This document shows, piece by piece, positions 6,121 to 53,830 of a DNA stretch of 64,000 nt. The position numbers and the translations under genes are program-made. Every line of letters begins with the position of its first letter. Within the stretch, counting starts at the first letter, position 1. The stretch is from Pseudomonadota bacterium (GTDB taxonomy: Bacteria; Myxococcota_A; UBA9042; CAIXZC01). The stretch spans positions 145,490 through 209,489 of the forward strand of contig JBDRIT010000025.1 of the NCBI GenBank assembly GCA_043815665.1, in the 5' to 3' direction. Under the pieces are notes generated by a model. The model saw only the letters and a program-made list of their open reading frames with translations. It was not told where the DNA came from and ran no database searches.

Positions 6121-6129
6121 TGACGTCCT

Positions 6130-9148: not shown

Positions 9149-9186
9149 CCAAGTACCATTCGGCCGTCACAGACACGGAGGTTCCC

Positions 9187-35365: not shown

Positions 35366-38300
35366 TCAGAGCTGGAAACTGAAGAGGCTGAGTGTCCATG
35401 GCCACCCAAGGCCAGTGACAACGTAGACCGTGCCGTTGGTTTCTATCGCTAGCTGTGAGCCTCCCAGCCCGTCATCGACCAGGGGCACAGAGATCTCGTT
35501 CCAGGTCGTTCCATCGAAGGAGTGAAGGGTCAAGCCGGAATTGTTGAACATCGAGTGGAGCTTGGATTCGAAGGGCACCGTCGCTGTGCCGCTGTAGCTG
35601 CTGACAGTCGAGCAGATCTGCCACCCCGTCGCTGCGGTATGGCAGTAGGCGGGTGAGTGCTGTAAGGTCGCGACGATCGTCTCTCCTTGAATCGAAACGT
35701 GGTTGTTTGACGAGGTCTGAGCATTTGTAGGGAGGTCGCCGGGGTCTCCCACGACCGACCATGTGTCGTCGGAGAACCGCATAATGATGTTGTGTACCGA
35801 ATCGGCCCACTCAGGATCCGACGCGCCAATTCCAACCTCGCTCGGCTGCTGCGTGAAGAAGACATAGGGCGTCCCGCCGGTCACTGCGAGGTCAAAGAAG
35901 CCCTGCCCGCCATAGGACCACACACCGAGGCCCTCGGGGCCCGAGTAGCCGACCGGCTCCCAGGTGTTCGTGTCGGTGTCGAGCTTCTTGACGCTCAGCC
36001 GCCAGTTGTAACCCGAGCTTCCGTCCTCATTGTGTATGTAGGCGACGTAGAGGTCACCGTTGTCGTCGAAGTCGATCACGCTGCCGCCTGTCGTGCCGGG
36101 TGCGTGATTCGGTAACGCCTCCCAGGTGCTGTCTGAGTACACCCGGATAGCGCCAGAGAAACCGGAGACGTACAGCTTGTTGTCATTGACCTTGGCAGAG
36201 ATTACGTAGCTGAGCGGCATCTCCAAGCCGTCGCTGGCTGACACCCAGGCTTCCCCGTCCCAGCGGCGCACAGAGACCTCTCCCAAGGCTTCCTGTCCCG
36301 CCCACGCCGCCACGGTGACCAGGTACGGCTCGTCATCAAGGAGAGCCAGCTTGAATTTGTACGTGTTCGCCAGGAAATCTGTCGCCAGCTCCGTCCATTC
36401 GGGGATGATGACGTTGACGCAACCGCTCTCAGGATCGCAGGAGTCGGCGGTGCCTGGGTTGCCGTCGTCGCAGCCGCCCTCGGCGACAGGAACCGTTGCC
36501 GAGGGTGTGTGGTTACAGATGGCGCTTTCACCCGATGTGCAACTGTCCAGGGTGCAGGGGTCGTCGTCGTCACAACCGTCGGGCTCCAGGATCTCCACGG
36601 AAGGCGTGCCCGCGCAGGCGCCCTGGTCGTCGCAGACGTCGAGCAAGGTGCAGACATCCAGATCGTCACATGAGGTCTCCCCGGGCATGTCGCAGGCCTC
36701 GCTCTCCTCCAACATTGGGCATTCGACGCCACCGCAGGCAGGCTCCAGAGTGATCGCACGGCTATGAAGCCGGGTCCCCTGGCAGGTCCCGTCGTCGGTC
36801 TCGCATGACGCCCAGTCACCCCAGTCGGAGACCATGCAGTCGATGGGCACGTTGGTGTGGACGCAGCCGGTGGCTTCTTCGCAGGTGTCCGCGGAGCAAG
36901 GATCCTCATCCGTGCAGTCCACCGCGTCACCGGGCACGCACTGGCCCTCTGCGCAGATGTCGATGCCGGTGCAGGCGTTCTCATCGTCGCAGAGCTCTTG
37001 ATTGGGCGTAAAGACGCAGCCCTCCGCGGGGTCGCAGGAGTCATCGGTGCATGGGTTCTCGTCGTCGCAGACCTCGACGCCGGTGGTCATGCACTGCGAG
37101 TCTGCGCAGTGGTCACCGAGGGTGCAGGCGTCGTCGTCGGTGCACTCTGCCGCGTTCGCTGTGAAGACGCACTCGCCCTCCACGCAGACGTCGTCGGTGC
37201 AGACGTTCTCGTCATCGCAGACCTTGGCCATGCCCGACTGGCACGCACCCTCGACGCAGACGTCGCCCAGGGTGCAGGCGTCGGCGTCGGTGCACTCCAG
37301 GACGTTGTTGGCATTGACACACCCCGTCGCTGGATCGCAGGAGTCATCGGTGCAGACGTTCCCGTCGTCGCAGTCCGGGATCCCCGTGGTCACGCAGCTC
37401 CCCTCCTCGCAGTGGTCCCCCGTGGTGCAGGCGTCCGCGTCGGTGCAGGACTCCAGGTTGTTCGCGAAGACGCAGCCCGACGCGGGGTCGCAGGACTCGG
37501 TGGTGCAGACGTTGCCGTCGTCACAGTTCACGAGGGGCGCCAGCGTGAAGCAGCTCCCGCCGCTGCACATCTCGTCCACGGTGCACGCGTCCCCGTCGTC
37601 GCAGGGCAGGGTGTTGAAGTCGTGGACGCAGCCCACCGCGGGGGCGCAGGAGTCGTCGGTGCAGAGGTTCCCGTCGTCGCAGGGCAGCGCGCCCGTGGCC
37701 GCACAGACTTCGTCCTCGCAGTGATCCCCGACGGTGCAGAGGTTCACGTCGGTGCAAGGGTTGTCGTTGGGGGCGTAGACGCAGCCGGACATGGGATCGC
37801 AGGTGTCCGTGGTGCAGACGTTCTCGTCATGGCAGTTGGTCGGCAGGCCATCTTCGCACACCCCGGCGACGCAGATCGTGGCCATGGTGCAGAGATCCCC
37901 GTCATCACAGGCTGCCCCATCGTTGGCCGGCACGAAGGAGCACTCCCCCGTCCCTGGATCGCAGAAGCTCTCCAGGCACTCGGCCCCCAGCCCCTGGGGC
38001 TTCACGCACAGGGTCCAGGTGTAGGGGGTCACCGCGCACTTGGGCGGCAGGGCGATGAGGTCGCATTGGAGGGCTCCAGCGCAGAGGTCCAGGGCCGCGA
38101 TCTCGTCACAGTCCCCATCGACCGTGCAGCCGCACGGGACCTCGAAGCCGACGCAGACCCCGTCGGTGCAGTTGTCGCTGACCGTGCACGGGTCCATGTC
38201 GTTGCAGGGCACGTGGTTGTCCGGGTGGATGCAGCCGTCCACGGGATCGCAGACGTCGTCGGTGCAGAGGTCGCCGTCGTCGCAGTCGATCGCGTCCCCG

Positions 38301-38923
38301 GTGCACACGCCGGCGATGCAGGTGTCGTTCTCCGTGCAGATCGACGCGTCGTCGCATTCGGTCTCCCACACCAGCGCGTGGTCACAGTCACCGTCGGCCC
38401 CGCAAGAGTCGATGGTGCACACGTTGTCGTCGTCGCAGTCCACTGCCGATCCAGCGCAGATCCCGGCCCCGTCGCAGAGGTCGTCCTCGGTGCAGGGATC
38501 CCCGTCGTCGCAGGCCCCGCCATCGAGGAGTTCGCTGACACAGCCCTCGGTGCCCGCGCAGCTGTCCACGGTGCAGGGGTCCCCGTCGTCGCACTCGCCC
38601 GAGACCATGTCCAGGTTGTCCACCTCGCCGTCACAGTCGTTGTCGAGGCCGTCGCAGATCTCGTCCTCGGGGACGCAGGGCGGGGCCTCTGGTGGCAGAT
38701 CCTCCGGCGCCACGTCGAGATCGTCCGTCAGGACGTCCGACGCGTCCGGCATCATCGCGTCGGGTTCCACCTGGTCACCGGACACCAGCTCCGACACGTC
38801 CGGCTCGACCGCCGTGTCGGTGTCCTGGGTGGGTCCCGTGCATCCGAAGACCAGGACACAGGCCAGGAGGACGGCCGGGCGGACGAAAATCAACCCTGGT
38901 TTCATCATTCTCTCGTTCATCAT
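35366..38923 (-). CDS. Lipoprotein with ~35 tandem Myxo-type Cys-rich repeats (C-x-D-D/E-N-x-C-T-x-D-x-C) and a C-terminal beta-propeller-like domain
   Basis: Lipobox LVFGCTG. Repeats such as CDDGDPCTVDSCAGTEGC. C-terminal ~420 aa are Cys-poor. The ATG overlaps the upstream TGA (ATGA). Confidence 0.75.
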   Translation of the reverse strand: MMNERMMKPGLIFVRPAVLLACVLVFGCTGPTQDTDTAVEPDVSELVSGDQVEPDAMMPDASDVLTDDLDVAPEDLPPEAPPCVPEDEICDGLDNDCDGEVDNLDMVSGECDDGDPCTVDSCAGTEGCVSELLDGGACDDGDPCTEDDLCDGAGICAGSAVDCDDDNVCTIDSCGADGDCDHALVWETECDDASICTENDTCIAGVCTGDAIDCDDGDLCTDDVCDPVDGCIHPDNHVPCNDMDPCTVSDNCTDGVCVGFEVPCGCTVDGDCDEIAALDLCAGALQCDLIALPPKCAVTPYTWTLCVKPQGLGAECLESFCDPGTGECSFVPANDGAACDDGDLCTMATICVAGVCEDGLPTNCHDENVCTTDTCDPMSGCVYAPNDNPCTDVNLCTVGDHCEDEVCAATGALPCDDGNLCTDDSCAPAVGCVHDFNTLPCDDGDACTVDEMCSGGSCFTLAPLVNCDDGNVCTTESCDPASGCVFANNLESCTDADACTTGDHCEEGSCVTTGIPDCDDGNVCTDDSCDPATGCVNANNVLECTDADACTLGDVCVEGACQSGMAKVCDDENVCTDDVCVEGECVFTANAAECTDDDACTLGDHCADSQCMTTGVEVCDDENPCTDDSCDPAEGCVFTPNQELCDDENACTGIDICAEGQCVPGDAVDCTDEDPCSADTCEEATGCVHTNVPIDCMVSDWGDWASCETDDGTCQGTRLHSRAITLEPACGGVECPMLEESEACDMPGETSCDDLDVCTLLDVCDDQGACAGTPSVEILEPDGCDDDDPCTLDSCTSGESAICNHTPSATVPVAEGGCDDGNPGTADSCDPESGCVNVIIPEWTELATDFLANTYKFKLALLDDEPYLVTVAAWAGQEALGEVSVRRWDGEAWVSASDGLEMPLSYVISAKVNDNKLYVSGFSGAIRVYSDSTWEALPNHAPGTTGGSVIDFDDNGDLYVAYIHNEDGSSGYNWRLSVKKLDTDTNTWEPVGYSGPEGLGVWSYGGQGFFDLAVTGGTPYVFFTQQPSEVGIGASDPEWADSVHNIIMRFSDDTWSVVGDPGDLPTNAQTSSNNHVSIQGETIVATLQHSPAYCHTAATGWQICSTVSSYSGTATVPFESKLHSMFNNSGLTLHSFDGTTWNEISVPLVDDGLGGSQLAIETNGTVYVVTGLGWPWTLSLFSFQL

Positions 38924-41484
38924 AAGGACCTCGCACAGCGGAAGCCGATGTCACCGGTCTCGTCGTCGTCCTCGGGCACCCCCGCCCGGGTCGACACCGA
39001 GCAGGCCGCCGCAGCGTCGAGATAGCTGCCGCCGCGGACCACTCTCACGCCGTCACAACCCGTCTCCCAGGGTGGGTACCCCAGGGACGGCGCCCCGATG
39101 TAGCTCGGGTGGTAGCAATCAGACACCCACTCGGAGACGTTGCCGCTCATGTCGAAGAGGCCGGCGGCGTTCGCCAGCTTGCCACCGACCTCGTGCTTCG
39201 TCCCGTCGGAGTTGCCTGCGGTCCAGGCCACGTCGCCCAGACAGGCGCTGGCGCTCCCGCAGACGAACGCCGTGGCGCTGCTCCCGCGCAGGGCGAGCTC
39301 CCACTCGGCCTCCGTGGGCAGGCGCGCCCCGATCCGCTGGCAGAACTCCGCCGCCTGGGTCCAGGCCACGCACTCCACGGGGAACGCAGCGCCGGACGGG
39401 TCGCAGGAGGGCGTCAGACCCATGGAGAACTCGAAGTCCTCCTCCGTGACCTCCATCGCGAGGATCTCGAAGGGCTGCACCGCCACCGGGTGACTGGGGT
39501 ACTCGTCGGGATCGGGACAGATGCCTGTGGGGCAGCCCATCCAGAACTGGCCCCCGGGGATCGAGATCCACTCCAGGTCCGGCACGTTCTGCCCGCAGAC
39601 GCCCACGTAGCAGCCGAAGCCGGGATCGCAGTCCCCGCAGGTACCGCCGCACCAGTCGTCGCCGCACTCCTTGCCGCCGCAGATCGGCGTGCAGCAGGCG
39701 CCCTGGAAGCACTTCCCCGTGGCGCAGGGCTCGCCGTCGGTGACGGGCTCGTTGACGCAGCCCGAGGACGGGTCGCAGGAGTCCACGGTGCAGGTGGTGC
39801 CGTCGTCGCAGGCCGCGGACGCGTCCACGTAGTAGCACCCCTCCGTGGGGTCGCAGAGGTTCGTGGTGCACGCGTCGCCGTCGTCGCAGGGCAGGGGATC
39901 CACGCCGCTGCCGCAGCCACCAAGCGCGCAGGTGTCGCCCACGGTGCAGACGTCGCCGTCGTCGCAGGGCACGGTGTTCGGCGCGTGGACACAGCCCGTC
40001 GCCGGCGCGCAGGAGTCGTCGGTGCAGAGGTTCAGGTCGTCACAGTCCGGCGGCGGGCCGCCGACGCAGACGCCGGTGTCACAGACATCGTCCAGGGTGC
40101 AGGCGTTGCCGTCCACGCACTCCGCGCCGCTGGCCGGTGTGTAGAGGCAGCCGGGCCCCGGGTCGCAGAGGTCCGTCGAGCAGGGGTCACCGTCGTCACA
40201 GTCCACGGCCTCCGGGCCGACGCAGATCCCCTCCGAGCAGATGTCCGCGGTGGTGCAGGCGTCCCCGTCGCTGCACGGCGCCGTGTTGAAGACGTGCTGG
40301 CAACCGACGCCGGGCTGGCAGGAGTCCGTGGTGCAGAGGTTGTCGTCCTTGCAGTTCGTCGTGCCGCCGTTGACGCAGATCCCCGCCATGCAGGTCCCCG
40401 TCTTCGTGCAGATCTCCCCGTCCTCGCAGACGCCGCCCTCGTTGATGGCGACCACGCCGCAGTTCCCCGTGGAGCCGTCGCAGTGCGCAGCGACGCAGTC
40501 GGCGTTCGGCCCCTCCGGCGGCTCCGGACAGGACGGCACGGTGAGGGGATTCACCGCGCAGGTAAAGGGGAAGGTCGCGTAGTCACAGAAGAGGATCCCG
40601 TTGCAGAGGTCGCCGTCCTCCAGGACCAGGCAGTCGACGTCGTTCTCGCAGTCGCAGGGGAGCACGAAGCCGACGCATTCCCCCAGCGCGCACTCGTCGT
40701 CCACGGTGCAGGGGCTCCCGTCGTCGCAGGGCTCGAAGTTCGCGGTGAAGGTGCAGCCCGTCGCCGGCTCGCAGGAGTCGTCGGTGCAGAGGTTGCCGTC
40801 GTCGCAGGTCAGGGGCGTCCCTACGCACAGACCTTCGACGCAGAGCTTTGCGACGGTGCAGAGGTCCCCGTCCCAGCAGGGCACCGCGTCCAGGTCCTCG
40901 AAGGCACAGCCGCTCACCTTGTCGCAGCTGTCCTGGGTGCAGGGGTTCCCGTCGTCACAGTCGGTGAAGGTCCCCTGGCAGACGCCGTCCCCGCAGGTGT
41001 CCCCTGCGGTGCAGGCGTTGTCGTCGTCGCAGGCCACGTCGGTGAGGGACGCGAACTGGCATCCCTTCCCGGGCTCACAGGTCCCTACGATGCAGGGGTT
41101 TGGGTTGGCGCAGAGGGACTGATCCGGGTCCTCGGGCGGGTTGTCCACCACGCCGTCGCAGTCGTTGTCCTGGCCGTCGCAGATCTCCGGCTCGGGGACG
41201 CAGACGATCTCCTCGACCACCTCGACGACGTCGGGCTCGACCACCTCCATGACCAGATCGGGTTCCTCGGTGTCCTGGCCCGGGAGGACCTCCAGCACCA
41301 CCGCGTTGGGGTCCTGGATGCAGACCCCATCGGCACCGCAGACCTCTCCCGCGGGGCACTGCGAGTCGTTCAGGCAGGCGGTCCCGTCCCCGGTCAGCAC
41401 CAGGGTCCCCCCGTCGCAGGCGCCCAGGAGGATCACCAGGGCGAGGACCAGGCCCCGCACCGCACCAGTGGCTGTCCTATTCAT
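38920..41484 (-). CDS. Lipoprotein with Myxo-type Cys-rich repeats and a C-terminal formylglycine-generating-enzyme (FGE-sulfatase/SUMF1) family domain
   Basis: ggagaaggagatcggcaATG. Lipobox LVILLGAC. C-terminus WISIPGGQFWMG...RLPTEAEWE...GNVSEWVSD...RVVRGGSY...GFRCARS. The track ORF's upstream 31 codons are discarded. Confidence 0.75.
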   Translation of the reverse strand: MNRTATGAVRGLVLALVILLGACDGGTLVLTGDGTACLNDSQCPAGEVCGADGVCIQDPNAVVLEVLPGQDTEEPDLVMEVVEPDVVEVVEEIVCVPEPEICDGQDNDCDGVVDNPPEDPDQSLCANPNPCIVGTCEPGKGCQFASLTDVACDDDNACTAGDTCGDGVCQGTFTDCDDGNPCTQDSCDKVSGCAFEDLDAVPCWDGDLCTVAKLCVEGLCVGTPLTCDDGNLCTDDSCEPATGCTFTANFEPCDDGSPCTVDDECALGECVGFVLPCDCENDVDCLVLEDGDLCNGILFCDYATFPFTCAVNPLTVPSCPEPPEGPNADCVAAHCDGSTGNCGVVAINEGGVCEDGEICTKTGTCMAGICVNGGTTNCKDDNLCTTDSCQPGVGCQHVFNTAPCSDGDACTTADICSEGICVGPEAVDCDDGDPCSTDLCDPGPGCLYTPASGAECVDGNACTLDDVCDTGVCVGGPPPDCDDLNLCTDDSCAPATGCVHAPNTVPCDDGDVCTVGDTCALGGCGSGVDPLPCDDGDACTTNLCDPTEGCYYVDASAACDDGTTCTVDSCDPSSGCVNEPVTDGEPCATGKCFQGACCTPICGGKECGDDWCGGTCGDCDPGFGCYVGVCGQNVPDLEWISIPGGQFWMGCPTGICPDPDEYPSHPVAVQPFEILAMEVTEEDFEFSMGLTPSCDPSGAAFPVECVAWTQAAEFCQRIGARLPTEAEWELALRGSSATAFVCGSASACLGDVAWTAGNSDGTKHEVGGKLANAAGLFDMSGNVSEWVSDCYHPSYIGAPSLGYPPWETGCDGVRVVRGGSYLDAAAACSVSTRAGVPEDDDETGDIGFRCARSL

Positions 41485-42865
41485 TGCCGATCTCCTTCTC
41501 CGACACCTTGAACTCGACCCGGCGGTTGGCCTTGCGGCCCTCGGGGGTCGTGTTGTCCCCGATGGGGCGCTGGGCACCGAAGCCCTTCGCGTCGAGGCGT
41601 GCCGCGGGGACGCCCTTGCTGACCAGGTAGGTCACCACGGACTTCGCCCGGTCCGACGACAGCGCGAGGTTGCGGTCCGCGTCTCCCACGTTGTCCGTGT
41701 GCCCCTCGACCCGGATCTGATGCACCGCGGGGTGCGCCAGGATCCAGCGGGCGACCTCGTCCAGCTCCTTCATCGATGCGGGCAGGAGCACGTCTCGATT
41801 GGTCTCGAACTGCACCCGCTGCGCGATCTCCAGGAGCTCCTTCGGGGTCTCCACCGGCGGCGGAGGAGGAGGCGGAGGAGGCGGAGGAGGTGGAGGCGGC
41901 GGAGGCGGAGGCGGAGGCGGCGGAGGCGGAGGTGGCGGAGGTGGCGCCGGGGGCTCAAAGGTGCAGCGCTCGAAGCGGAACCCGGAGGTGACACGGAAGG
42001 CCGCCTCACCCATGCCGCCCACGAGGCCGCCGCCCCCCGCGACGTAGACCCGGGCCCAGTCGCCGACGCAGGCGTCGAGGCCCACCTGGCCCTCCATCGC
42101 GGTGCCATCCGTCGAGAGCCCTCCGACCCAGGAGGAGAACACCGTCATCTCGCCGAGGAGCCCGAGCTTGTCCTCCAGGAACCCCTGACGGAGCCCCAGG
42201 CCCATGGCCAGCCCGCTGCCGGCGTCGAAGCCGACGATGGTCTGCGTCTCCAGGAGCCGGACCCCCGCGTTCAGAGCGATCAACGTCGCGGTGGGGAACC
42301 GGTAGTCCAGAACCACCCGGGCCGCCCCCGAGAACCCGCCGGACCCGGAGTAGGTCCCCGCCGTCGCGGTGGGGAAGCCGATGTCCGCGTCCACGCCGAG
42401 GCCGAAGCCCGTCCTCACCCGCGGGAACGCCAGGAATCGGAGGCCGAGGCGCAGATCACCCAGGCCCCAGGCGTCCGCGGTGGGCGCGCCGGTGATCCCA
42501 GAGCTCCCCGCGGCGAAGAGCGTCACCGGGAGGTTCACCCCCACGGAGAGGCGGCGCCATCGGCTGAACGCGGCGAAGAGATCCCCGGTCAGGAGCTGCT
42601 CCACGGGGTGGAAGGTGGCGTCCCTCCCGGTCCTCTGATCATCGATGACCAGGGGATCCCGGGCGTAGGTGACGAAGAAGCCCCCGGAGAACCCGCCACC
42701 CAGCCAGGCGGCGGTCCGGATCATCATCAGATCCCCCGCGTGGGGGGAGGCCTCGAAGTGCTGCACGTTGAGCTTCGGCTCCCCACCCCGGGCGGGACCG
42801 CCGATGACGGCCGCCAGCAGGAGGACGCCGGCCGCTGCTCCGATTCGAATCCTGTTCATGGACAT
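41477..42865 (-). CDS. OmpA-family protein: N-terminal OM beta-barrel-like domain, ~30-residue polyproline linker, C-terminal OmpA peptidoglycan-binding domain
   Basis: Signal peptide MSMNRIRIGAAAGVLLLAAV. C-terminus RVEGHTDNVGDADRNLALSSDRAKSV...GFGAQRPIGDNTTPEGRKANRRVEF. Its stop lies inside an 8-nt overlap with the next gene's start. Confidence 0.8.
   Translation of the reverse strand: MSMNRIRIGAAAGVLLLAAVIGGPARGGEPKLNVQHFEASPHAGDLMMIRTAAWLGGGFSGGFFVTYARDPLVIDDQRTGRDATFHPVEQLLTGDLFAAFSRWRRLSVGVNLPVTLFAAGSSGITGAPTADAWGLGDLRLGLRFLAFPRVRTGFGLGVDADIGFPTATAGTYSGSGGFSGAARVVLDYRFPTATLIALNAGVRLLETQTIVGFDAGSGLAMGLGLRQGFLEDKLGLLGEMTVFSSWVGGLSTDGTAMEGQVGLDACVGDWARVYVAGGGGLVGGMGEAAFRVTSGFRFERCTFEPPAPPPPPPPPPPPPPPPPPPPPPPPPPPPPPPVETPKELLEIAQRVQFETNRDVLLPASMKELDEVARWILAHPAVHQIRVEGHTDNVGDADRNLALSSDRAKSVVTYLVSKGVPAARLDAKGFGAQRPIGDNTTPEGRKANRRVEFKVSEKEIGNE
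41853..41953 (-). repeat. Simple-sequence coding repeat (GGAGGC/GGAGGT)n on the plus strand, encoding ~30 consecutive prolines
   Basis: Read directly from the DNA. The protein run is PPAPPPP...P. Confidence 0.7.
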
Positions 42866-42925: not shown

Positions 42926-45900
42926 TCAATTCGCTGGACCACAGTAGCCCCCATAGCCGTCCGGGTCCCCGGGCCAGCAGTACCAGGTCCCGGAGTGCCC
43001 GCAGTCCTGGCAGGTCCCGGCCTTCGCACCGCAGTACCCGTTCGACTGCTCGTGCCGGTAGTGGCAGCCCGTCATCCAGCCCTGGTAGGTCAGGTTCTGG
43101 AAGTTCGGGGCACAGCAGCCGGGGCAGCCCTTGCCCCCGGGGTACACGTACCCGCAGTCCTGCGGGCAGTTGCACATGGTCTCTTTGAACTGGCTCTCGC
43201 AGTTCTGGTTTCCGCATGCCAGGTAACACTTGCCGTCGTAGCCGCAGTATTGCTTGTTCTGGTCGGGGCAGACGCCGCAGTACACGCCGCAGACCGGATC
43301 GTTGCCGCAGACCCTCCCCGCGCAGGGCTGGCCGCAGTCCTGGGGGCAGGTGCATTTGGTCTCCCCAGCCTGACACTGCCCATTCCCACAGATCGGGTAG
43401 CAGTTGTTGCCGGAGCAGGTGTATCCGTTGGAGCAGGTGCCGCAGAACTCGCCGCAGACCGGCTCGGTCCCGCAGGTCTTGTTCGCGCAGGGTTGTCCGC
43501 AGTCCTCGGGGCAGTTGCACTTGGTCTCCCCGGGCTGGCACTGCCCGTTGCCGCAGACCGTCACACAGGTCCCCCCGTCGCAGGTCAGGTACTGGGGACA
43601 CGCGGGGCACTCGACACCGCAGACCGGATCGACGCCGCACTCCACATCGACGCAAGGGTCGCCGCAGTCCAGCGGGCAGGTACAGAGGGTCTCGCTCGGG
43701 TCGCAGAGGCCGTTGCCGCAGAGCAACAGGCAGGCGCCCGCGTCGCAGTACTCATCGACCGCACAGGTGCCGCAGCCGAAGCCGCAGACCGGATCCGCGT
43801 CGCACTCGATGCCCGCGCAGGGGTCGCCGCAGTCCTCGGCGCAGGAGCACAGGGTCTCGCCCTTGTCCACCTCGCAGCCGAACTCGCCGCAGGTCGGCGG
43901 GCAGTAGCCGCAGGTGTCGCAGGAGTCGGGGCAGCAGGTCCCGGCCAGGATGCACGCCTCGCTGCAGTCGCAGACCCCGCCGGAGCCGTCGCACTCGCAG
44001 GGGGAGCATGCATACGGGTCGTCGGGGCAGTCCAGGGGGCAATCGCACGAGGTCTCGTCGCCGTTGCACACCCCGTCCCCGCACGTGGGGGGGCAGACGC
44101 CGCAGAGGAGGCACGCGTTCACACAGCAGTTCCCGGCGTCCACGCAGTCCGGTCCGCAGCCGCAGGTCCCCCCGGACCCGCCGCACTCGCACAGGGAGCA
44201 GGTCGACGGATCGTCGGGGCAGTCCGCGGGGCAGGAGCAGGAGTTCTCCTTGCCGTTGCACTGGCCATCGCCGCACTCCGGGACGCAGACCCCGCAGGCG
44301 TCGCAGGAGTCCGCGCAGCAGTTCCCGGTGGCCACGCAGCTCGGGGCGCAGGAGCAGGAGCCCCCGGAGCCGCCGCAGTTGCAGGGGGAGCAGCTGAGGG
44401 GGTCGTCTGGGCACTCCACGGGGCAGGAGCAGGAGTCCTCGCCGTACCCCGGCTCACAGAGGCCGTTTCCGCAGCAGTCACCGCAGTCCTGGGGGCAGGC
44501 CTGGCAGGTCTCGTCCCCGTTGCACTGGCCGTCCCCGCAGGCCGGGGCGCAGTTGCCGCAGAGCTGGCAGTCGTTCGCACAGCAGGTCCCCGTCGCGATG
44601 CAGGCCGCGTCGCAGGCGCAGTTGCCGCCGGTCCCGCCGCACTCGCAGGCTGAGCAGGTCTCCGGATCGTCGGGGCAGTCCGCAAGGCAGGAGCAGCTGT
44701 CCTCCTGGTGCTGGACCTCGCAGAGGCCGTTGCCGCAGCACGGACCGCAGTCGATGGGGCAGCCGCTGCAGGTCTCGCCGTACTCGCAGCTGCCGTTGCC
44801 GCAGACCGCGGGGCAGGCCCCGCAGAGGCCACAGGCGTTGGCGCAGCAGGTCCCCAGCTGGACACAGTCCGGGCTGCAATCGCAGCTCCCCCCGGTGTCG
44901 CCGCACTGGCAGGCCGAGCAGGAGTTGGGGTTGTCGGGGCAGTCCGCGGGGCAGGAGCAGGAGTTCTCCTGGTACTTCGCCTCGCAGGCGCCGTTGCCAC
45001 AGCACGATCCGCAGTCACCGGGGCAGGAGGTGCAGGTCTCGCCCTCCTCGCAGGCCCCGTCGCCGCACTCCGGCGGGCAGGCGCCGCAGGTGTCACAAGC
45101 GTCGGCACAGCAGCTGTTCGTCACGTGGCAGAGGTCGTCACACCAGCAGCTCCCGCCGTTGCCGCCGCACTGGCAGGCAGAGCAGGAATCGAGATCATCT
45201 GGGCAGTCCGTGGGGCAGGAACAGGAGTCCTCTCCGAGGGCCGCCTGGCAGATGCCGTTCCCGCAGCAGCTCCCGCAGTCCGCCGGGCAGGTCCCGCAGC
45301 CTTCGGTGGCTGCGCAGGCTCCGCCCCCGCAGACCGCGGGGCAGGAGCCGCAGGCCGTGCACGCATTGGCGCAGCAGTCCCCGGTGAGCACGCAGGAGGG
45401 GCCGCACTTGCAGGCGTCGCCGCTACCCCCGCACTGACAGGGAGAGCATGTGTCGAGATCATCCGGGCAGTCCGCGGGACAGGAGCAGGAGGTCTCGTTC
45501 TGCTGGGGCTGGCACACCCCGTTGCCGCAACACGGGCCGCAGTCCGCCGGGCAGCTCTTGCAGCTCTCGGCGCCGGTGCACTGCCCGTCCCCGCAGACCA
45601 CGCAGAGGCCGCAGGACGAGCAGATGTTGGCGCAGCAGTTGCCGGTCAGGCCGCAGTCCGGGGCGCAGCTGCAGCTCCCGCCGCTGGTGCCGCACTGACA
45701 GGAGGAGCAGGTGTTCGGGTTGTCAATGCAGTCGGCCTCGCAGGAGCAGGAGGACTCGTTGAAGTTGGCCTCGCACTGCTGGTTTCCGCAGCAGAGCCCA
45801 CAGTCCTGAGGACAGGTCCCGCACTTCTCGCCGTTGTCGCACTGGCCGTTGCCGCAGCACTGGCCGCAGTCCGGCACGCAGGTGAGGCAGGTCTCCCCCT

Positions 45901-46450
45901 GAGCGGCCTTGCACTGGCCGTCCCCGCAGCAGTCGCCGCAGTCCTGCTTGCACGTGCTGCAGCTCTCCCCCTTCCCGGGCTCGCACTTGCCGTCGCCGCA
46001 GCAGATCCCGCAGTCCTGGGGGCAGGTGCCACAGTTCTCGTTGGCCGCGCAGACGCCGTTGGGGCAACAGGGGCCGCAGTCCTGGGGACAGGTGATGCAG
46101 TCCTCGGTCAGGTCGCAGGTGTAGTTGCCGCAAGCCAGGCCGCAGTCCTCGGGGCAGTTGACCTGGTTCTCCATGCCGTTGCATTCCCCGTTGACGCAGC
46201 AATGGCCGCAGTCCTCGGTGCAGTTGCAGGGCGACTCGCCGCTGGCTTCGTCACACTTGCCGTTGCCGCAGAGGGTCGAGCAGTCCTGGGGGCAGCTCTC
46301 GAGCTCGCCCGGGGTGCAGACCCCGTCGCCGCAGTGGACGCCGCAGTCCGCGGGGCAGGTGAGCGCGTTCTCTCCCTTGGCCGAATCGCAGAACAAATCA
46401 CCGCAGTAGGGAAGGCACTTGCGATCCTGGCAGAAGTGGGTGGACTCGCA
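42926..46450 (-). repeat. Intragenic array of Cys-rich coding repeats (three nested periodicities)
   Basis: Periodic CP[AQ]DCG.CCGNG.C in the translation, with corresponding partial DNA periodicity. Confidence 0.7.
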
Positions 46451-47863
46451 GGTGCCGCAGCTCTTGAAGCAGATGGGATCGTAGCTGCACTCGCAGCCGG
46501 TGAAGTTCGGGACGCAGGTGGTGTCCAGGGTCGGGTCCTTCTCGTCCCCTGCGATGAACTTGGGGAAGGGGTTGTCATCGCCCAGGATCCACCCGAGGAG
46601 CTCCGGCGACGCGTAGTCGAAGAGCGTCATCCCCATGATCTCCCCGGCGACCCCCACGTAGGCCTCGACGCCCCACTCCAGGACCCACCAGGGCAGGGCC
46701 TTGTTCAGCAGGTCCTTGATGCCGGCCCGGAGCTGGATGTACACGTCGGCCTGCACGTAGGGGCCGGCCACGCCGAAGATCTTGGCCGCCAGCTTGAGCC
46801 CGGAGTAGACCTTGACCAGGGCCTCGATCCCGAACTCGGGCTCGGTGTAGTCGAAGGATCCGTCGAAGTTGGAGTAGGGGTTGAACCCGTCCCCGCTGTC
46901 CCCGTAGTCCCGGTAGTCGATGCCGACCTCGACGCTGATGCTCGACGTCACCGTGGTCTCGAGGGTGAAGAAGACGCCGACCTCCCAGGCGAGGAACAGC
47001 TCGAGGCTGATGTTCAGCGGGACCGGCCCGATCATGAGCGTTCCGAGGTTCAACGTGGCGAGGGTCTGGCTCCCCTCCATCTTCAAGACGGGCGCCTTGA
47101 TGAGGAAGTCGAGCTCACTCTCCGCCTCGACGAGGGTGCCGACCCGCAGGTGGTAGAGCTGCAGGAGGATGCCGATGTCGATGTCGAACTGGAGGGTCAT
47201 CCCGAAGTCGATGGTCCCGCCGACGGTGATCTGGTCCGTCGTCGTGGCCGAGTTGGCGTCCGCGTCGAAGATCACGATGGGCGGGAAGGTGATTGAGAAC
47301 AGGTCGCCGCCGAGCTCGCTGTACCCGGCGTACAGGGACAACACCGGGGAGCGCTTGACCTCCAGGCCGTCGATCTTGGTCTCGTAGTTGTCCATGTCCT
47401 CGTAGCGGGCGTTGCGCACCAGCTCGATGTGGAGCTCGTCGAAGGCCTCCTCGAGGGTCGCCGGCTCGGTCTCCACGCTGACGGTGCCGTCGGGGTTCAC
47501 GGTCTTGGACTTGACCTTGAACAGCCCGCCCTGGGGCGTCTTGGACGAGGGCCCGAACATCAGGACGTTCCCCTCCACCGCGTCGGCCACCAGGGGGGAG
47601 TCCGCGGCGAGGACCATGGCCCCCGCCGTCCCGGACACGGGGATCGAGAGGACCGTGGCCTCGACCTCATCGGGCAGCATCGTGCGGGTGGTCGCCGGCA
47701 GCTCGTACTCGACCTTCATCACCTCGTCGAGGCCCTTGGGCTTCTTCTTGAGCTGGACCGCTCCGTGCTCCTCGTCGGAGCACGCTGCGACGCCGAGGAG
47801 CAGGGCCAGACCAAGGATCCCGGAAAGCAGATGAATCGTGCGTCGCATGGTGTTCTCCATCAT
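42926..47863 (-). CDS. Giant Cys-rich repeat lipoprotein (1645 aa): ~470-aa N-terminal domain followed by a hierarchical array of C-P-x-D-C-G-x-C-C-G-N-G-x-C modules
   Basis: Lipobox ALLLGVAAC. One nucleotide separates it from the upstream OMP gene's stop. Six ~22-aa units, then five to six ~88-aa super-repeats, then four ~55-aa units. ~25% Cys. Confidence 0.8.
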   Translation of the reverse strand: MMENTMRRTIHLLSGILGLALLLGVAACSDEEHGAVQLKKKPKGLDEVMKVEYELPATTRTMLPDEVEATVLSIPVSGTAGAMVLAADSPLVADAVEGNVLMFGPSSKTPQGGLFKVKSKTVNPDGTVSVETEPATLEEAFDELHIELVRNARYEDMDNYETKIDGLEVKRSPVLSLYAGYSELGGDLFSITFPPIVIFDADANSATTTDQITVGGTIDFGMTLQFDIDIGILLQLYHLRVGTLVEAESELDFLIKAPVLKMEGSQTLATLNLGTLMIGPVPLNISLELFLAWEVGVFFTLETTVTSSISVEVGIDYRDYGDSGDGFNPYSNFDGSFDYTEPEFGIEALVKVYSGLKLAAKIFGVAGPYVQADVYIQLRAGIKDLLNKALPWWVLEWGVEAYVGVAGEIMGMTLFDYASPELLGWILGDDNPFPKFIAGDEKDPTLDTTCVPNFTGCECSYDPICFKSCGTCESTHFCQDRKCLPYCGDLFCDSAKGENALTCPADCGVHCGDGVCTPGELESCPQDCSTLCGNGKCDEASGESPCNCTEDCGHCCVNGECNGMENQVNCPEDCGLACGNYTCDLTEDCITCPQDCGPCCPNGVCAANENCGTCPQDCGICCGDGKCEPGKGESCSTCKQDCGDCCGDGQCKAAQGETCLTCVPDCGQCCGNGQCDNGEKCGTCPQDCGLCCGNQQCEANFNESSCSCEADCIDNPNTCSSCQCGTSGGSCSCAPDCGLTGNCCANICSSCGLCVVCGDGQCTGAESCKSCPADCGPCCGNGVCQPQQNETSCSCPADCPDDLDTCSPCQCGGSGDACKCGPSCVLTGDCCANACTACGSCPAVCGGGACAATEGCGTCPADCGSCCGNGICQAALGEDSCSCPTDCPDDLDSCSACQCGGNGGSCWCDDLCHVTNSCCADACDTCGACPPECGDGACEEGETCTSCPGDCGSCCGNGACEAKYQENSCSCPADCPDNPNSCSACQCGDTGGSCDCSPDCVQLGTCCANACGLCGACPAVCGNGSCEYGETCSGCPIDCGPCCGNGLCEVQHQEDSCSCLADCPDDPETCSACECGGTGGNCACDAACIATGTCCANDCQLCGNCAPACGDGQCNGDETCQACPQDCGDCCGNGLCEPGYGEDSCSCPVECPDDPLSCSPCNCGGSGGSCSCAPSCVATGNCCADSCDACGVCVPECGDGQCNGKENSCSCPADCPDDPSTCSLCECGGSGGTCGCGPDCVDAGNCCVNACLLCGVCPPTCGDGVCNGDETSCDCPLDCPDDPYACSPCECDGSGGVCDCSEACILAGTCCPDSCDTCGYCPPTCGEFGCEVDKGETLCSCAEDCGDPCAGIECDADPVCGFGCGTCAVDEYCDAGACLLLCGNGLCDPSETLCTCPLDCGDPCVDVECGVDPVCGVECPACPQYLTCDGGTCVTVCGNGQCQPGETKCNCPEDCGQPCANKTCGTEPVCGEFCGTCSNGYTCSGNNCYPICGNGQCQAGETKCTCPQDCGQPCAGRVCGNDPVCGVYCGVCPDQNKQYCGYDGKCYLACGNQNCESQFKETMCNCPQDCGYVYPGGKGCPGCCAPNFQNLTYQGWMTGCHYRHEQSNGYCGAKAGTCQDCGHSGTWYCWPGDPDGYGGYCGPAN

Positions 47864-47864: not shown

Positions 47865-48788
47865 TCAGTTCTCCACCCGCTGCCGGGGCTCCCAGGCTAC
47901 GTGCAGCATCGCTTCCCAGGCCGCGGAGCCCGCCAGATCACCGAACCCGGCGCCGCCGGCGACGCCGATCATCAAGTCTGAACCCGCACGCACCTGCAGG
48001 CCGCCGCGGATCGCGGTGGCGAGGGACCGCTCGCCGGTGAACGCAGAGTCCACCAGGGTGCGGGTCTGGCTGCTCAGAAGGAGCTCCAGGCGATCCCGCA
48101 GGATGGGGATCCGAAGGCCGATCCCCAGGAGCAGCTCGTCGCTCACGGGCGGGGTGAACTCCCGCGCTGCCTTGCGGGCCAGGTAGCCCACGTTGAGGGC
48201 CACGATGAAGCCCTTGATCTGGTAGTCCAGGATCAGCCGCGTGACCGACGTCGGCGCGTCCGCGCCGAAGAGCTTGTCCCCCACGGAGGTCGGCAGGGTC
48301 AGGTCCTGGGCCACCCCGAGGCCGAAGCCCTTGTTGTGGTTGTCCCAGAACTTCGCCTTGAAGGAGAGCCTGAGATCGCCCAGGCCTGCCCCGGCGACCT
48401 GCGTCCACGCTGGATTGACCAGCGCGGGATCCCCGCCCGCTGAGTGGAGCAGCACCGGCAGATCGATGCCGACGCTGGCCAGGCCGAAGAGAGGCAGCGC
48501 GACCTGGAGGTCACCGACGAGCTGGTCGCCCACCAGGGCCACCTCACCCTCGCCCTCGAAGCCCACCGCGACCAGGGGGTCCTTGCGGTAGGTAAACCAC
48601 ACACCCCCGGAGACCCCAAGGTGGGGCCCGACCCGGGTCGTCACCGTGTCGAGGATGTCCCCGGCGTGAGGAGAGGGCTGGAAGTCATCGACGTTGATCT
48701 TCGGGTTGCCTGCATGGGCGAGCGGGCCCGCACAGACACAGAAGATCGTGACAAGAGCCAAGAGGGTACAGTTCGCAGGTCGCACCAT
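47865..48788 (-). CDS. Outer-membrane beta-barrel protein, paralogous to the N-terminal domain of the OmpA-family gene; first gene of the operon
   Basis: Signal peptide MVRPANCTLLALVTIFCVCAGPLAHAG. NPKINVDDFQPSPHAGDIL parallels PKLNVQHFEASPHAGDLM of the OmpA gene. ATG at 48788 preceded by aaggcggtgg. Confidence 0.65.
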   Translation of the reverse strand: MVRPANCTLLALVTIFCVCAGPLAHAGNPKINVDDFQPSPHAGDILDTVTTRVGPHLGVSGGVWFTYRKDPLVAVGFEGEGEVALVGDQLVGDLQVALPLFGLASVGIDLPVLLHSAGGDPALVNPAWTQVAGAGLGDLRLSFKAKFWDNHNKGFGLGVAQDLTLPTSVGDKLFGADAPTSVTRLILDYQIKGFIVALNVGYLARKAAREFTPPVSDELLLGIGLRIPILRDRLELLLSSQTRTLVDSAFTGERSLATAIRGGLQVRAGSDLMIGVAGGAGFGDLAGSAAWEAMLHVAWEPRQRVEN

Positions 48789-48874
48789 GGGGTCCACCGC
48801 CTTCGTGTCAGACTCAGCGCAGAACGCGAGGCGAATTTATCCTGCCTGCTCAATGAAAAGACAATAGACGCCGT

Positions 48875-48942: not shown

Positions 48943-51900
48943 TCACGTGACCCGGTCCCCCGATGGCGGGTGGCCGTACCAGGCAGAGTAGACCTGTGAG
49001 AAGTAGCTGGCGCTCATCCCCACCCTTGCGGCCACCTCTGCCGACGTGTCGAATTCCCCGGATCTCAGCATGGAGCGCGCCTCCTCCAGGCGCAGCTGGC
49101 GGACGAGCTGGACCGGCCCGAAGCCTGTGGCCTCCCGACACCGCCGCTGGAGCTGCCGGGGACTCAGGGCCATCTCCCGCGCCAGGGCCGGCACGGAGAA
49201 CTCAGGATCGGCCAGGTGGACCAGCACGATGGAGCGGAACTTCTCCCAGAAGACCCGGCCCGCCGGCGTCACCTTTATCCCCTCCGGTGACTCTGCCCCG
49301 GCCGCAGTCACAGCGGACGTGCCTGCAGCAACGTCGACCCCCGAACGAACGATCTGGTTGCGTACCCGCGAGAGGAGATCCTTGATCCCGAAGGGCTTCG
49401 CCAGGTAGTCATCGGCGACGGCCAGCCCCTCGGCGCTCGCACCGGGGCCGGACCGCGCCGAGATCAGCACGACCCGCACCTCCGCCAGCTGGGGATTCGA
49501 CCGGATCGCCGCCGCAAGCTCCAGGCCGTCCATCCGAGGCATCATGATATCCGACACCACCACCCGGGGCCGCTCCCTGCGAACGAACTCGAGGGCCTCC
49601 CGACCGTCCCTGGCCTGGGCCACCCGACCGAGGCCGGTGAGGTGTGAGGCGAGGTAGGACCGCATGTCCTCGTTGTCCTCCACCACCAGCACGAGGGGCT
49701 CGTCTTCGCCCCGGTCTTCCCCGTCACCCTGGATTTCAGCCGACGGGACAGCCCCACCCGAGGCCTCCGCCTCGAGCTGATCCAGGGTGAGGTGCTGCAC
49801 CCCCATGGGCAGGCGGACCAGGAAGCGGCACCCCGTCCCCTCGGCGTCATCGAATCCGATCTGCCCGCCGTGGAGCTCGACCAGCTCCCGGCAGAGGGAG
49901 AGCCCGATGCCCATTCCCTGGGGTCTCCATCCCTGTCTGGGCACCTGGCAGAAGCGCTCGAAGATCCGCTCCCTCGCGGCGACGGGGATTCCGGGCCCGG
50001 TGTTGAGGACGGTCAGCGTCACGTACGCTGTGCCCCACCCGTCCTCCTCCTGGCCGGGAGCCGGTCCATGGGTCGAGACCAGGACGCGTCCTCCCCGGGG
50101 GGTGTGCTGCAGGGCATTGGTCACGAGATTGGACAGCACCGTTTCCATGAGATCCGCGTCGAAGTACAGCGACAACTCCCCCGGTCCCGTGTCCGCAGCG
50201 AAGTCCAGGCCCCGGTCAGCCGCGTCGACCTCGAAGCGCTCGACGGTTCGCCGCACGAAGGCGGCGAAGTCCTGCCTGCGGGTTCTGAGCCTCATCGCGC
50301 TGCCGTCCAGGAGGGCGACCTTCACGAGCTGTCCGATCAGCTCGTGAAGGCGTGTCGCGTTTCTCCGGATCACGTCCAGGGTTCGAAGCTCCTCGCCGCC
50401 CGTGCCCCCCAGACAGGCCGCCAGATCCTCCAGGGGCCCCAACACCAGGGCGATGGGGGTCTTGAGCTCGTGGGACACGTTCGCGAGGAACCGGGTCTTC
50501 ATCCGGTCGGTCTCTTCCAGCCGCCGGGCCTGGTCTTCCAGGGTCCCTTCCCGTGCCTTCAGCAGGGCGGTTGCCTCCCTGACCTGGACCTCGAGCTCCC
50601 GCTTCCGACGGCGCAGCCGCCGCGTCCGCTGCCACGCCAGGGCGCCGACCAACACCAGGCCGGCGAAGACCAGCAACGCAATGAACATCCAGGTCTCGTT
50701 GAACGCGGGCCTGCGGTGGACGTCCAGCCGCACCGGCTCCCCCCAATCCAGGAGCCCGGCCTGGACCTCGAAGGTGTATCCACCCGGGGGCAGGTTCGTC
50801 CAGGAGGCGACGCGCCCGGCCCCGGGTGCGCTCCAGGCATCGTCGAAGCCCGCCAGCCGGTAGCGGAACCTCACGTCCTCGGGCCAGACCAGCTCCGGGC
50901 AGTGCCAGCGCACGGAGAAGCCCCTCTCCTCGGGCTCGAGGACGATCCGCTCCGGGATGTCGGACGGATCGACGGTCCGATCACCGTACGTGATGGTCTC
51001 GATGGCCGCCCGGGGAGGGGGCGGCGTCGGGAAGCTCTCCGGGCGCACGCCGGAGAGCCCCACCTGCGTCGGATACCAGAGGAGGCCGTCGGGGGATCCC
51101 GCCAGGGCGGGCTGCATGTATCCGTTGGCTTCGCCGGACGCCATGCCGTCACTCTGGTCCAGGGTCAGCGCGAGGACGTGGTCCCGGTCTGAGGAGAAGT
51201 ACGCCTCCAGCACCGCCCGCTCGAGGATCGAGATGCCCCGGTTGCTGCTCAACCAGATCCGTCCGAGCCGATCTTCGGCTACGGAGTGGATGGTGTCGTC
51301 GGGCAGGCCGGCCGCCCGGCTCACGCACACCCTGGGCCCCGCGGTCATCCCATCCTGCCCCAGACCCACCCTGCAGAGGCCGGAGTCGTCGGTGCCCAGC
51401 CAGGCAACACCGCCGCGGTCGACGGTGACGAAGCGGATGCCGACGCTCCCGAGGCCCGGGTCCGGGCTGAAGGACTCCCGCTCCCCCGACCGATACCGCA
51501 CGAGCCCGCGATCCCGGGTCGCGATCAGCACCGACCCGTCAGGGGCCTCGGCGAACATCCGCACGGTGTCGGAGCCCAGGTCACCGCCCCCCGCCACCCG
51601 CCTCGACGTCCAGGAGCCCCCCTGCTCCTCGATGTTCCAGAGACCGCCCGTGATGTTCGAGTACCAGATCTTCCCGGTCGCGTCCTGGTAGCCAGGCCCC
51701 CGCTGCCAGTTCATGTCACCGAGGGGCGGCAGGGGCACGCACCGGTCCCCGTCCACCTGGCAGATCCCGCCGTTCGAAGGAATCCACACGCGCCCGTCCC
51801 GCAGCAGGATGGGTGGATACGCCGTGATCTTCGCTCCCGCGTCGGGCACGCTGGTTCCGGTCACCGCGATGCGCGTGGCCCCTCCGGCCCCGATCCGCAC

Positions 51901-53085: not shown

Positions 53086-53374
53086 CCTGCTCCTTGCGTG
53101 CATGTGTGTGGGCCAAAGTGCCCCATCCGATGTGGGGGTGGCCCTGCACTCCGCGGTTCCTCCGAATCATCCCATGCCCTCCGACAAATTCAAGCCCTAT
53201 CAACTCTTCCACTGGCACTCCCTCTTGCATGGCGCGCCGGAGGAGCGTATAGAATGCGCACGTCCATCCCGGACTGCGGCGAAGGAAAGACGCCACGACA
53301 CCCAGGCAACAACAGGCGACGGCAGCGCTCCGCATCGAAGCCTTCGAGCTCTCCTCCCTCGTGGATACCACCCC

Positions 53375-53830
53375 GTGAGCGTGGAGATCCAGCCCCTCCA
53401 TGATCTCGACTCGATCCGCCAGCTGATCCGCATCCACGACGCGGCCTGGAAGGGCTCCACGGGGATCCTGGACCTCCTGAGGAACTCCACCACCTGTCTG
53501 CTCGCTCGGGGTCCCCGGGGCCGCATCGTGGCGTACCTCTTCCTCGAGGAGGACCGGTCCCGGGGCTTCTTCGAGATCCAGGACGTGGTGGTGCACCGCC
53601 GCCACCGCCGCAAGGGCTACGGGCGCCTCATCGTGGAGGCGGCCATGGCCCGCTGCTGCGCGCTCAAGCTCCTGGCCAGCGCCAACAAGCCCGGCCTGCT
53701 GCATTTCTACAGCGGCCTCGGGTTCGAGGTAGAGCACCGCATCGAGAACTACTACGACGTGGGGGACGACGCGGTCCGCATGAGCTGGCGAGGTGCGTCG
53801 CCCTCCGGCGGAGGCGCGGCCAATCAGTAG
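53375..53830 (+). CDS. GNAT family N-acetyltransferase
   Basis: Acetyl-CoA-binding region VVVHRRHRRKGYGRLIV. GTG start. ~151 aa. Confidence 0.7.
   Translation: MSVEIQPLHDLDSIRQLIRIHDAAWKGSTGILDLLRNSTTCLLARGPRGRIVAYLFLEEDRSRGFFEIQDVVVHRRHRRKGYGRLIVEAAMARCCALKLLASANKPGLLHFYSGLGFEVEHRIENYYDVGDDAVRMSWRGASPSGGGAANQ

Follow-up and report, generated by a model that had tools for sequence, protein, structure and literature searches.

What are long arrays of cysteine-rich (Cys-rich) repeats on a bacterial lipoprotein made of, and what might they do? This question is raised by a minus-strand open reading frame (ORF), 42926..47863, in a 64,000-nucleotide (nt) stretch of DNA from a genome deposited as Pseudomonadota bacterium (assembly GCA_043815665.1, contig JBDRIT010000025.1, positions 145,490 to 209,489). 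The whole stretch is called the window here, and all positions refer to it. The ORF encodes a Cys-rich lipoprotein of 1645 amino acids (aa), which is recorded at NCBI as MFH1529682.1, 'MAG: hypothetical protein ABIK09_02985 [Pseudomonadota bacterium]' (MAG, metagenome-assembled genome), on a 236-kb contig. Its annotated start is at 47848, 5 codons downstream of the ORF start. The protein is a singleton at 90% identity in the cluster databases and its own representative at 50%. This anonymous 'hypothetical protein' can now be dissected into a mosaic of modules. One of them, the B module, is classified from its sequence as a probable divergent ten-Cys subfamily of the somatomedin B (SMB) domain that falls below the Pfam threshold when searched alone. 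The SMB domain, a protein-binding disulfide knot, is best known from animal extracellular proteins.

The repeat array consists of three module types. The A unit has about 22 aa and 6 Cys (CG[ND]GxC-x(3-8)-E-x-C-x(1-2)-CPxDCGxC); 24 copies were found by regular expression (regex) and 27 by profile. The B module has 33-41 aa (DDPxxCSxCxCGGxGGSCxCxxxCxxxGxCCAxxCxxCGxC) and 8 copies by local profile search, each preceded by an A-unit end reading CSCPADCPDD. The C module has about 34 aa and 4-5 copies (CGxPCxxxxCGxxPVCGxxCGxCxxxxxCxxGxC).

The relationship between the B module and SMB was detected by several searches. A phmmer search of the whole lipoprotein against PDB sequences matched the SMB domain of SUSD2 (2cqw). 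When a profile of the 8 B modules was searched against all PDB sequences, all 11 hits at E <= 10 were SMB-containing proteins; with five B modules of three relatives added, the same was true of all 15 hits (E <= 10). The SMB proteins matched by this 13-module profile were ENPP1/2/3, SUSD2, snake venom phosphodiesterase, vitronectin, and ENDOU. The best match was ENPP1 (E 3.1e-4), with every Cys in register, and HMMER alignments to ENPP1, ENPP3, and SUSD2 confirmed the Cys register of the B modules. The comparison by hhalign of the window's 8 B modules with six canonical SMB domains gave a probability of 92.9% (E 3.7e-7); the controls gave 2.0% for the A units and 0.5% for the C modules. The similarity seen by hhalign and by the PDB search is specific to SMB and goes beyond general Cys-richness.

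The B modules also contain the eight-Cys framework of SMB, with its CxC pair, CC pair, and conserved spacing (C-x(3-5)-C-x(6-7)-C-x-C-x3-C-x5-CC-x(5-6)-C). Across the 13 aligned B modules, seven of the SMB Cys positions never vary, and none of the 8 window copies lacks the eighth. Also shared are the Gly that precedes the CC pair and the acidic or amide residue that follows it. However, the B module differs from the SMB domain in several respects. It has 10 Cys instead of 8, with the extra Cys at module positions 9 and 35. Its first loop is Gly-rich (CGGxGGS), and the conserved Arg before Cys2 is missing. It always stands behind the CSCPADCPDD lead-in and an A unit, in 8 tandem copies in a bacterial lipoprotein.

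One result speaks against this assignment and against the function proposed below. The Pfam model PF01033 (Somatomedin_B; cutoff 23.1 bits) did not match the window's B modules even at E <= 10. The same model scored 22.0 bits (E 2e-4) on P0012, a relative from a Myxococcales MAG, and 13.8 bits on another relative, P0013. A further relative (L005; metagenome contig ERZ890953 NODE-711, 5655-10091) is a 1479-aa lipoprotein with Dicty_CTDC-like repeats, A units, and 'CC..WD..C' domains. The L005 protein ends in two near-canonical SMB domains, which pass the cutoff with 34.1 bits. This pair indicates that bona fide SMB domains exist in bacterial surface proteins. A literature search turned up no paper that joins somatomedin B with myxobacteria; four papers name it alongside prokaryotes, and judged by title and abstract none of these seemed to concern a bacterial SMB domain.

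Two linked ideas follow, and they are put forward tentatively, with more doubt than confidence. Myxococcota-type bacteria might hold a diversified repertoire of genuine SMB domains, and the N-terminal domain of the lipoprotein might have a new beta fold and act, in thousands of proteins, as a common base near the membrane from which variable payloads are displayed on bacterial surfaces. For the SMB part, it is possible that the ten-Cys subfamily was amplified here to 8 tandem copies in a conserved composite repeat of A unit and SMB. If true, the 'animal' SMB knot would have a past in prokaryotes, whether it arose there or was exchanged horizontally long ago. The occurrence of diversified SMB-type knots in bacterial surface lipoproteins bears on the source of metazoan extracellular-matrix modules.

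The composite unit (A unit, CSCxxDCPDD, and SMB-like module) recurs in four other proteins, L001, L002, L003, and L070. The first (GCA_964505145.1, contig CAZDHJ010000064.1, 8729-10429) is a lipoprotein that contains a Ser/Gly linker and five or more super-repeats of A unit and SMB-like module. Its gene is annotated only as a 142-aa fragment (P0009), and the assembly is broken by a run of N inside the repeats. In L002, 2 composite copies stand near the N-terminus; the protein also has 8 C modules, and its MYXO-CTERM tag passes TIGR03901. L003 contains about 17 A units and has 2 composite copies at its extreme C-terminus; L070 is a lipoprotein with 1 composite copy at the C-terminus. In all four, the SMB-like modules occupy the end opposite to the lipid anchor. 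Among the A-unit proteins, many are lipoproteins (L004, L046, L011, L008, L012) or have MYXO-CTERM-type tails (L007, L009), and the same modules are found with MYXO-CTERM-type anchors in L002, L007, and L009. Two other lipoproteins, P0127 and P0100, consist of the N-terminal domain, C modules, and a globular C-terminal domain (Lcl_C in P0127) and share the design of the window lipoprotein. A general layout recurs in these sequences: an anchor, a long array of Cys-rich modules, and a small distal domain. The relatives are of Myxococcota type.

The A unit and the C module had no counterpart in PDB or among the known families. Both are common in environmental proteins; the A units reach 41 in L004, and L014, a 2601-aa ORF, has 38 C-module hits. 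L004, L046, and L011 are lipoproteins in which 38-41 A units make up nearly the whole protein, and a small conserved cap that is rich in Cys (CQxHSYPGCNGCxCExCVC..SCC..W..ICVAICQYYC) comes after them. In the initial annotation, the core of the repeats was likened to the Myxococcus Cys-rich repeat, and this kinship was not supported. TIGR02232 did not match the window lipoprotein even at E <= 10; as a positive control, it was weakly found in L070. DUF4215 reached 12.9 bits (E 0.14, cutoff 27) on one 55-aa unit. Apart from this faint match, nothing was found in Pfam and NCBIfam at E <= 10 for the whole lipoprotein, or for five and then ten pieces of it. Therefore, at the level of hidden Markov models (HMMs), the array does not belong to TIGR02232/DUF4215, nor to the TraA repeat TIGR04201. 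The HMM comparison had been suggested for these repeat families and for eukaryotic Cys knots; for the former it gave the negatives above, and for the latter the profile of the B modules matched SMB domains. TIGR02232/DUF4215 and Dicty_CTDC are likewise short Cys-rich extracellular repeats of Myxococcota-type surface proteins with a 'CGNG' start, and they co-occur with A and B modules in L001, L070, and L005. Compared with these repeats, the A unit, with its 22 aa and 6 Cys, is the shorter one, and it has the end motif CPxDCG.

The anatomy of the lipoprotein is given here from the N-terminus to the C-terminus, with all features on the minus strand. The gene (42926..47863) is supported by its ORF, its database record, and its GC content at third codon positions (GC3), which is 0.93, as in the real genes of the window. 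Internal stops, looked for as a sign against the gene, were absent across the 4.9 kb. The N-terminus, MMENTMRRTIHLLSGILGLALLLGVAAC followed by SDEE, is a lipoprotein signal peptide (aa 1-28, 47780..47863, LLLGVAAC). It has a charged n-region, a hydrophobic h-region, and a lipobox of the type [LVI][ASTVI][GAS]C (MRR...LLSGILGLALLLG-VAAC-SDE). The lipobox, assigned by eye from the sequence, is V-A-A-C, with Cys28 as acylation site and Ser at position +2. The protein contains 277 Cys (16.8% overall). The share is 23% in aa 471-1645, against about 25% of residues in the initial annotation. Only 6 Cys lie in aa 1-470: one is Cys28, and the other five, at aa 450-469, belong to the start of the Cys-rich region. 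The 276 Cys that follow the lipobox Cys are an even number.

The signal peptide is followed by a Cys-poor N-terminal domain (N-domain; aa 59-449, 46517..47689), delimited by profile and by AlphaFold, with a profile core at aa 77-427. An exhaustive profile search found this domain in 6841 cluster representatives at E <= 1e-3 and in 1643 at E <= 1e-30; the lipoprotein's own representative, P0030, was found at E 7.7e-136. A word-indexed search under-reports the family, giving 3 and then 5 relatives with 23-30% identity. The match extends over about 340 residues and includes the motifs PATLE[ED]A, DxDxxxxTxxDQ, GPVP, G(V/I)xGPY, and PWW. Layout statistics were taken from the top 150 of the 6841 representatives. 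In these, about 78 residues typically precede the domain, and a variable stretch with a median of 279 residues follows it. A lipobox-like motif is present in 30 of the 150, and a YLPLV-like motif just upstream in 41. The payloads behind the domain, in members that were Pfam-scanned or read fully, are FN3, RCC1, Fib_succ_major, LRR, and Lcl_C. One member (P0075) comes from Caldilineaceae (Chloroflexota), and in some long members (P0075, P0164) the domain is located in the middle of the protein or at the C-terminus. The N-domain thus belongs to a large unnamed family, a portable module of thousands of secreted proteins with differing C-terminal payloads.

The Cys-rich region begins with an irregular lead-in (aa 450-486, 46406..46516), read from the sequence. 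Periodicity was measured as the identity at each lag against 2000 shuffles. The identity was 0.27 at lag 22 in aa 500-700 (shuffled 0.11, z = 7.3), 0.45 at lag 88 in aa 700-1340 (shuffled 0.12, z = 25.5), and 0.43 at lag 55 in aa 1320-1570 (shuffled 0.10, z = 16.3). With the lipobox in place and three periodicities far above the shuffles, the lipoprotein with a nested, hierarchical Cys-repeat array proposed in the initial annotation was confirmed. Its repeat counts fared less uniformly. Instead of six 22-aa units, block 1 (aa 487-705, 45749..46405; periodicity, regex, profile) holds about 10 tandem A units of 22-24 aa, of which 7 are regular. Block 2 (aa 706-1338, 43850..45748), delimited by Tandem Repeats Finder (TRF) and by DNA and protein repeat comparison, has 8 super-repeats instead of the five or six of 88 aa. 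Five of them have 87-88 aa (CSCPADCPDD, SMB-like module, A unit, A unit) and start at aa 706, 793, 881, 969, and 1057. The other three have 64-66 aa (CSCPADCPDD, SMB-like module, A unit) and start at aa 1145, 1209, and 1273, which explains a secondary periodicity of 64 residues. Block 3 (aa 1339-1571, 43151..43849; periodicity, regex, profile) consists of four 55-aa units, each a C module and an A unit, and a final A unit. The count of four agrees with the earlier one; three units were found by regex, and the fourth, with an insertion, was read from the sequence. The C-module profile gave five hits.

The eight SMB-like B modules of block 2 were all located by profile, PDB profile search, and hhalign. 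They are module 1 (aa 719-751, 45611..45709), module 2 (aa 806-838, 45350..45448), module 3 (aa 894-926, 45086..45184), module 4 (aa 982-1014, 44822..44920), module 5 (aa 1070-1102, 44558..44656), module 6 (aa 1158-1190, 44294..44392), module 7 (aa 1222-1254, 44102..44200), and module 8 (aa 1286-1318, 43910..44008). Module 6 is also the one aligned by phmmer to the SUSD2 SMB domain. The C-terminal knob (aa 1572-1645, 42929..43150) was delimited from the sequence. Where the initial annotation saw a W/Y/G-rich Cys knot, this end has 74 aa rich in Gly and aromatics, with 10 Cys, or about 12 by another count. The knob had no family match in Pfam or NCBIfam and no MYXO-CTERM tag; its end reads ...GGYCGPAN, without a hydrophobic or Arg-rich tail.

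The lipoprotein gene lies in an apparent operon of five tightly packed minus-strand genes, with no terminator-like site on the minus strand between them. The upstream gene (47865..48797) encodes a 310-aa secreted outer-membrane beta-barrel that matches the barrel region of TraB (E 2e-25) and Pfam Phenol_MetA_deg; its stop is separated from the lipoprotein ATG by 1 nt. Downstream, after a 60-nt gap, a 462-aa protein (41477..42865) combines a TraB-like barrel (E 1e-40), a poly-Pro linker, and an OmpA domain. The linker has about 32 uninterrupted prolines where Myxococcus TraB has TSP3 calcium-binding repeats; poly-Arg/poly-Pro antisense ORFs over it are artefacts. The two flanking barrels are paralogs (36% identical, E 2e-24). 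TraB (NF033763) is the only significant NCBIfam barrel match of both, with 89 bits for the 310-aa and 139 bits for the 462-aa protein. As these scores fail the 700-bit cutoff for TraB membership, the barrels are TraB-like paralogs, not orthologs. The genes further downstream overlap. The fourth gene (38920..41577, probable start M32 at 41484, LLGAC) encodes a Cys-rich lipoprotein in which 7 Dicty_CTDC repeats and C modules are combined with an FGE-sulfatase domain. The fifth (35366..38923) encodes a 1185-aa Cys-rich lipoprotein (VFGC) with 8 Dicty_CTDC repeats, TSP1_spondin, and a C-terminal beta-rich domain. Both of these lipoproteins carry eukaryote-like modules. Scans of genome contigs with the N-domain and with the barrels as queries gave no confirmed locus.

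What, then, might this lipoprotein do? With moderate confidence, it is read as a lipid-anchored, disulfide-stiffened surface stalk, an adhesin or a receptor, that is held by a barrel platform. It would be an outer-membrane lipoprotein anchored by the N-terminal lipid at Cys28, and the all-beta N-domain of about 390 aa would form a membrane-proximal base. The following 1120 aa or so would form a rod of small disulfide-locked modules (24-27 A units, 8 SMB-like modules, and 4-5 C modules), in which all 276 post-lipobox Cys can pair. Such a rod may be a rigid spacer with a diversifying surface, which would hold the aromatic-rich knob and the SMB-like protein-binding knots off the cell. From this position the lipoprotein may work in adhesion or as a receptor. 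An outer-membrane platform that retains or couples the lipoprotein may be provided by the two paralogous TraB-type barrels, which are presumably transcribed together with it, and the barrel-OmpA protein might tie this platform to peptidoglycan.

Two systems serve as models for this proposal. For TraA of M. xanthus, the Cys-rich region is described as a stalk, stiffened by disulfides, that docks on the barrel-OmpA protein TraB (PMC12045341, PMC3325183). The other model is CglB, a lipoprotein adhesin that the barrels GltA/B/H retain (PMC9946355); it is likewise a disulfide-rich outer-membrane lipoprotein beside paralogous barrels. However, CglB is a VWA-domain protein with 16 non-lipobox Cys, compared with 276 here. 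The Pfam and NCBIfam scans gave no hits to the VWA domain or the Glt families, and no motor genes were found in the window. Cys-rich modular surface proteins of Myxococcota type are known as such, although the structure of this one is unusual. What is new is that a divergent SMB-like subfamily has been amplified within a conserved composite repeat, that three unmodelled module types are joined to a member of a very large unnamed N-domain family, and that the operon holds two barrels. Three common building blocks had no Pfam or NCBIfam hit here and lend themselves to new family models and structure determination: the A units, the C modules, and the N-domain of the 6841 cluster representatives. 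The barrel, lipoprotein, and barrel-OmpA operon might be a third case, after TraAB and CglB/GltAB, of Myxococcota-type adhesins with dedicated barrel platforms.

Several points weigh against the stalk and platform proposal. The TraB scores of the two barrels are far below the curated cutoff. The adjacency of barrels is not conserved: P0127, the closest architectural relative, has no barrel neighbour, and the search at its locus for a conserved link between barrels and N-domain lipoproteins did not find one. Among about 80 related loci, a TraB-like barrel and an A-unit lipoprotein are paired in one (L012). The lipid anchor is at the end opposite to that of TraA, so the Cys-poor domain would be membrane-proximal and not a presented head. 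Moreover, the lipoprotein could face the periplasm, as exposure is not predictable from sequence.

The TraA/TraB likeness could be taken further, with the locus as a functional analogue of TraA/TraB. The lipoprotein would then be a homotypic recognition receptor, coupled to the wall by its barrel-OmpA partner, for kin-specific adhesion or outer-membrane exchange. This is considered unlikely. In its favour, the order of a Cys-rich receptor gene directly upstream of a barrel-OmpA gene is that of traA-traB. The 462-aa protein has the layout of TraB, with signal peptide, barrel, linker, and OmpA domain (PMC12045341), and TraB is the only significant NCBIfam barrel match for both barrels. TraA, too, is held at the surface by a lipid anchor and combines a globular domain with an extended Cys-rich region (PMC3325183, PMC12045341), and the Cys-rich region here resembles the TraA stalk (PMC3325183). 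However, the features that define TraA, a PA14-like variable domain, TIGR04201 repeats, and MYXO-CTERM (PMC3325183), were absent from Pfam and NCBIfam scans of the whole protein and its pieces, and the NCBIfam library does detect MYXO-CTERM in relatives of the lipoprotein. Since every defining test of TraA failed, the TraA likeness is an analogy and not a family assignment. The window locus also differs in its N-terminal lipobox anchor, which inverts the anchor polarity, in the second, OmpA-less barrel upstream, and in the poly-Pro linker in place of TSP3 repeats. The barrel scores of 89 and 139 bits against the cutoff of 700 argue in the same direction. The protein is also a singleton cluster. 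The N-domain family occurs in Caldilineaceae (Chloroflexota) as well, with unrelated C-terminal domains attached.

In place of a surface stalk, the protein might be a periplasmic or inner-leaflet lipoprotein. Its 276 Cys would then act as a thiol, redox, or metal (Cu/Zn/Cd) buffer, or the protein would be a passive envelope spacer. This reading is improbable. The Cys content of 23% in the repeat region, with CxxC and CC motifs, is compatible with it; a lipobox alone does not specify surface exposure, and the operon holds a protein with an FGE-sulfatase-type domain. However, the rigid, module-specific Cys spacing is typical of disulfide knots, one module type is homologous to the SMB disulfide knot, and the number of Cys is even. 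Sorting tags for the cell surface (MYXO-CTERM) are present on relatives, and no metallothionein or metal-binding family was hit in Pfam or NCBIfam. This metallothionein-like reading and the two that follow were all ranked low.

The structure of the N-domain raises another explanation, in which the domain is a membrane-inserted beta-barrel that exports the Cys-rich passenger, as in inverse autotransporters. The AlphaFold model, from a 65-sequence multiple sequence alignment, had a pLDDT of 82 and a pTM of 0.73. It opens with a small beta-barrel subdomain that is Lon-N/PUA-like; behind this lie about 11 long amphipathic strands, each with one face 80-100% hydrophobic and the other polar. Although confident, the model had no PDB counterpart. 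These long antiparallel strands with a strongly hydrophobic face are what favours export by the domain, which is nevertheless very improbable. The hydrophobic faces extend over the full 13-20-residue strands and are longer than a membrane span, and the lipobox already serves as an anchor. The N-terminal 12-stranded barrel of inverse autotransporters (intimin/invasin) gave no family hit in Pfam or NCBIfam. Furthermore, the taxonomic spread of the family (Caldilineaceae) and the variable position of the domain (mid-protein or C-terminal in P0075 and P0164) weigh against a membrane-embedded barrel.

The repeats of the array are old. TRF gave period 264 with 5.7 copies (69% identity), period 192 with 2.4 copies (76%), and period 72 with 2.5 copies (79%). 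The copies are 60-80% identical to one another at the DNA level, and the longest exact internal repeat in the gene is 38 nt. Four in-register 88-aa copies have nucleotide identities of 67-73%, amino acid identities of 58-64%, synonymous divergence (dS) of 0.46-0.93, and ratios of nonsynonymous to synonymous divergence (dN/dS) of 0.36-0.70. These values indicate purifying selection on the Cys/Gly/CPxDC scaffold of the repeats, with variation in the loops. The repetitive DNA had been expected to be strongly recombinogenic. Because the repeats are old by the same measures, recombination-driven length variation is not supported.

That the long ORF arose through faulty assembly or annotation (from repeats that were collapsed or chimeric, or from non-coding repeats in a wrong frame) is hardly credible. 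In favour of an artefact are the MAG origin of the sequence, the tendency of repetitive genes to be mis-assembled, the N-gap in the related L001 gene, and the long antisense ORFs in the repeat region. Against it, the copies are divergent enough for short reads to resolve them, so collapse is unlikely; the frame is uninterrupted with a gene-like GC3; homologs of the N-domain as well as of the modules are known for the sense frame; and the antisense ORFs are low-complexity by-products of Cys/Gly codons. The antisense ORFs lie on the plus strand at 43404-45437, with 167 and 507 aa (the latter 43914..45437) and a GC3 of 0.92. They were rejected as genes, being Ser/Gln/Pro-rich mirror images of the Cys/Gly codon repeats.

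The surroundings of the operon contain several further features. An Rfam search of the 64-kb window found nothing. Downstream of the operon, a 1.27-kb stretch of lower GC (34099-35365) is without a convincing gene or Rfam match and holds only a 96-aa ORF with a lipoprotein-like start (34482-34772, plus strand). Directly upstream of the operon, a minus-strand gene (48943-53103) encodes a 1386-aa hybrid two-component sensor with Reg_prop/Y_Y_Y, HisKA, HATPase, receiver, and AraC HTH domains. The Reg_prop/Y_Y_Y hybrid sensor architecture is typical of Bacteroidetes glycan-sensing regulators at polysaccharide-utilisation loci. Beyond the sensor kinase there are three paralogous arylsulfotransferase (ASST) genes at 53824-59414. 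The ASST cluster and the FGE-sulfatase-domain protein of the operon give a hint that the ligands might be sulfated.

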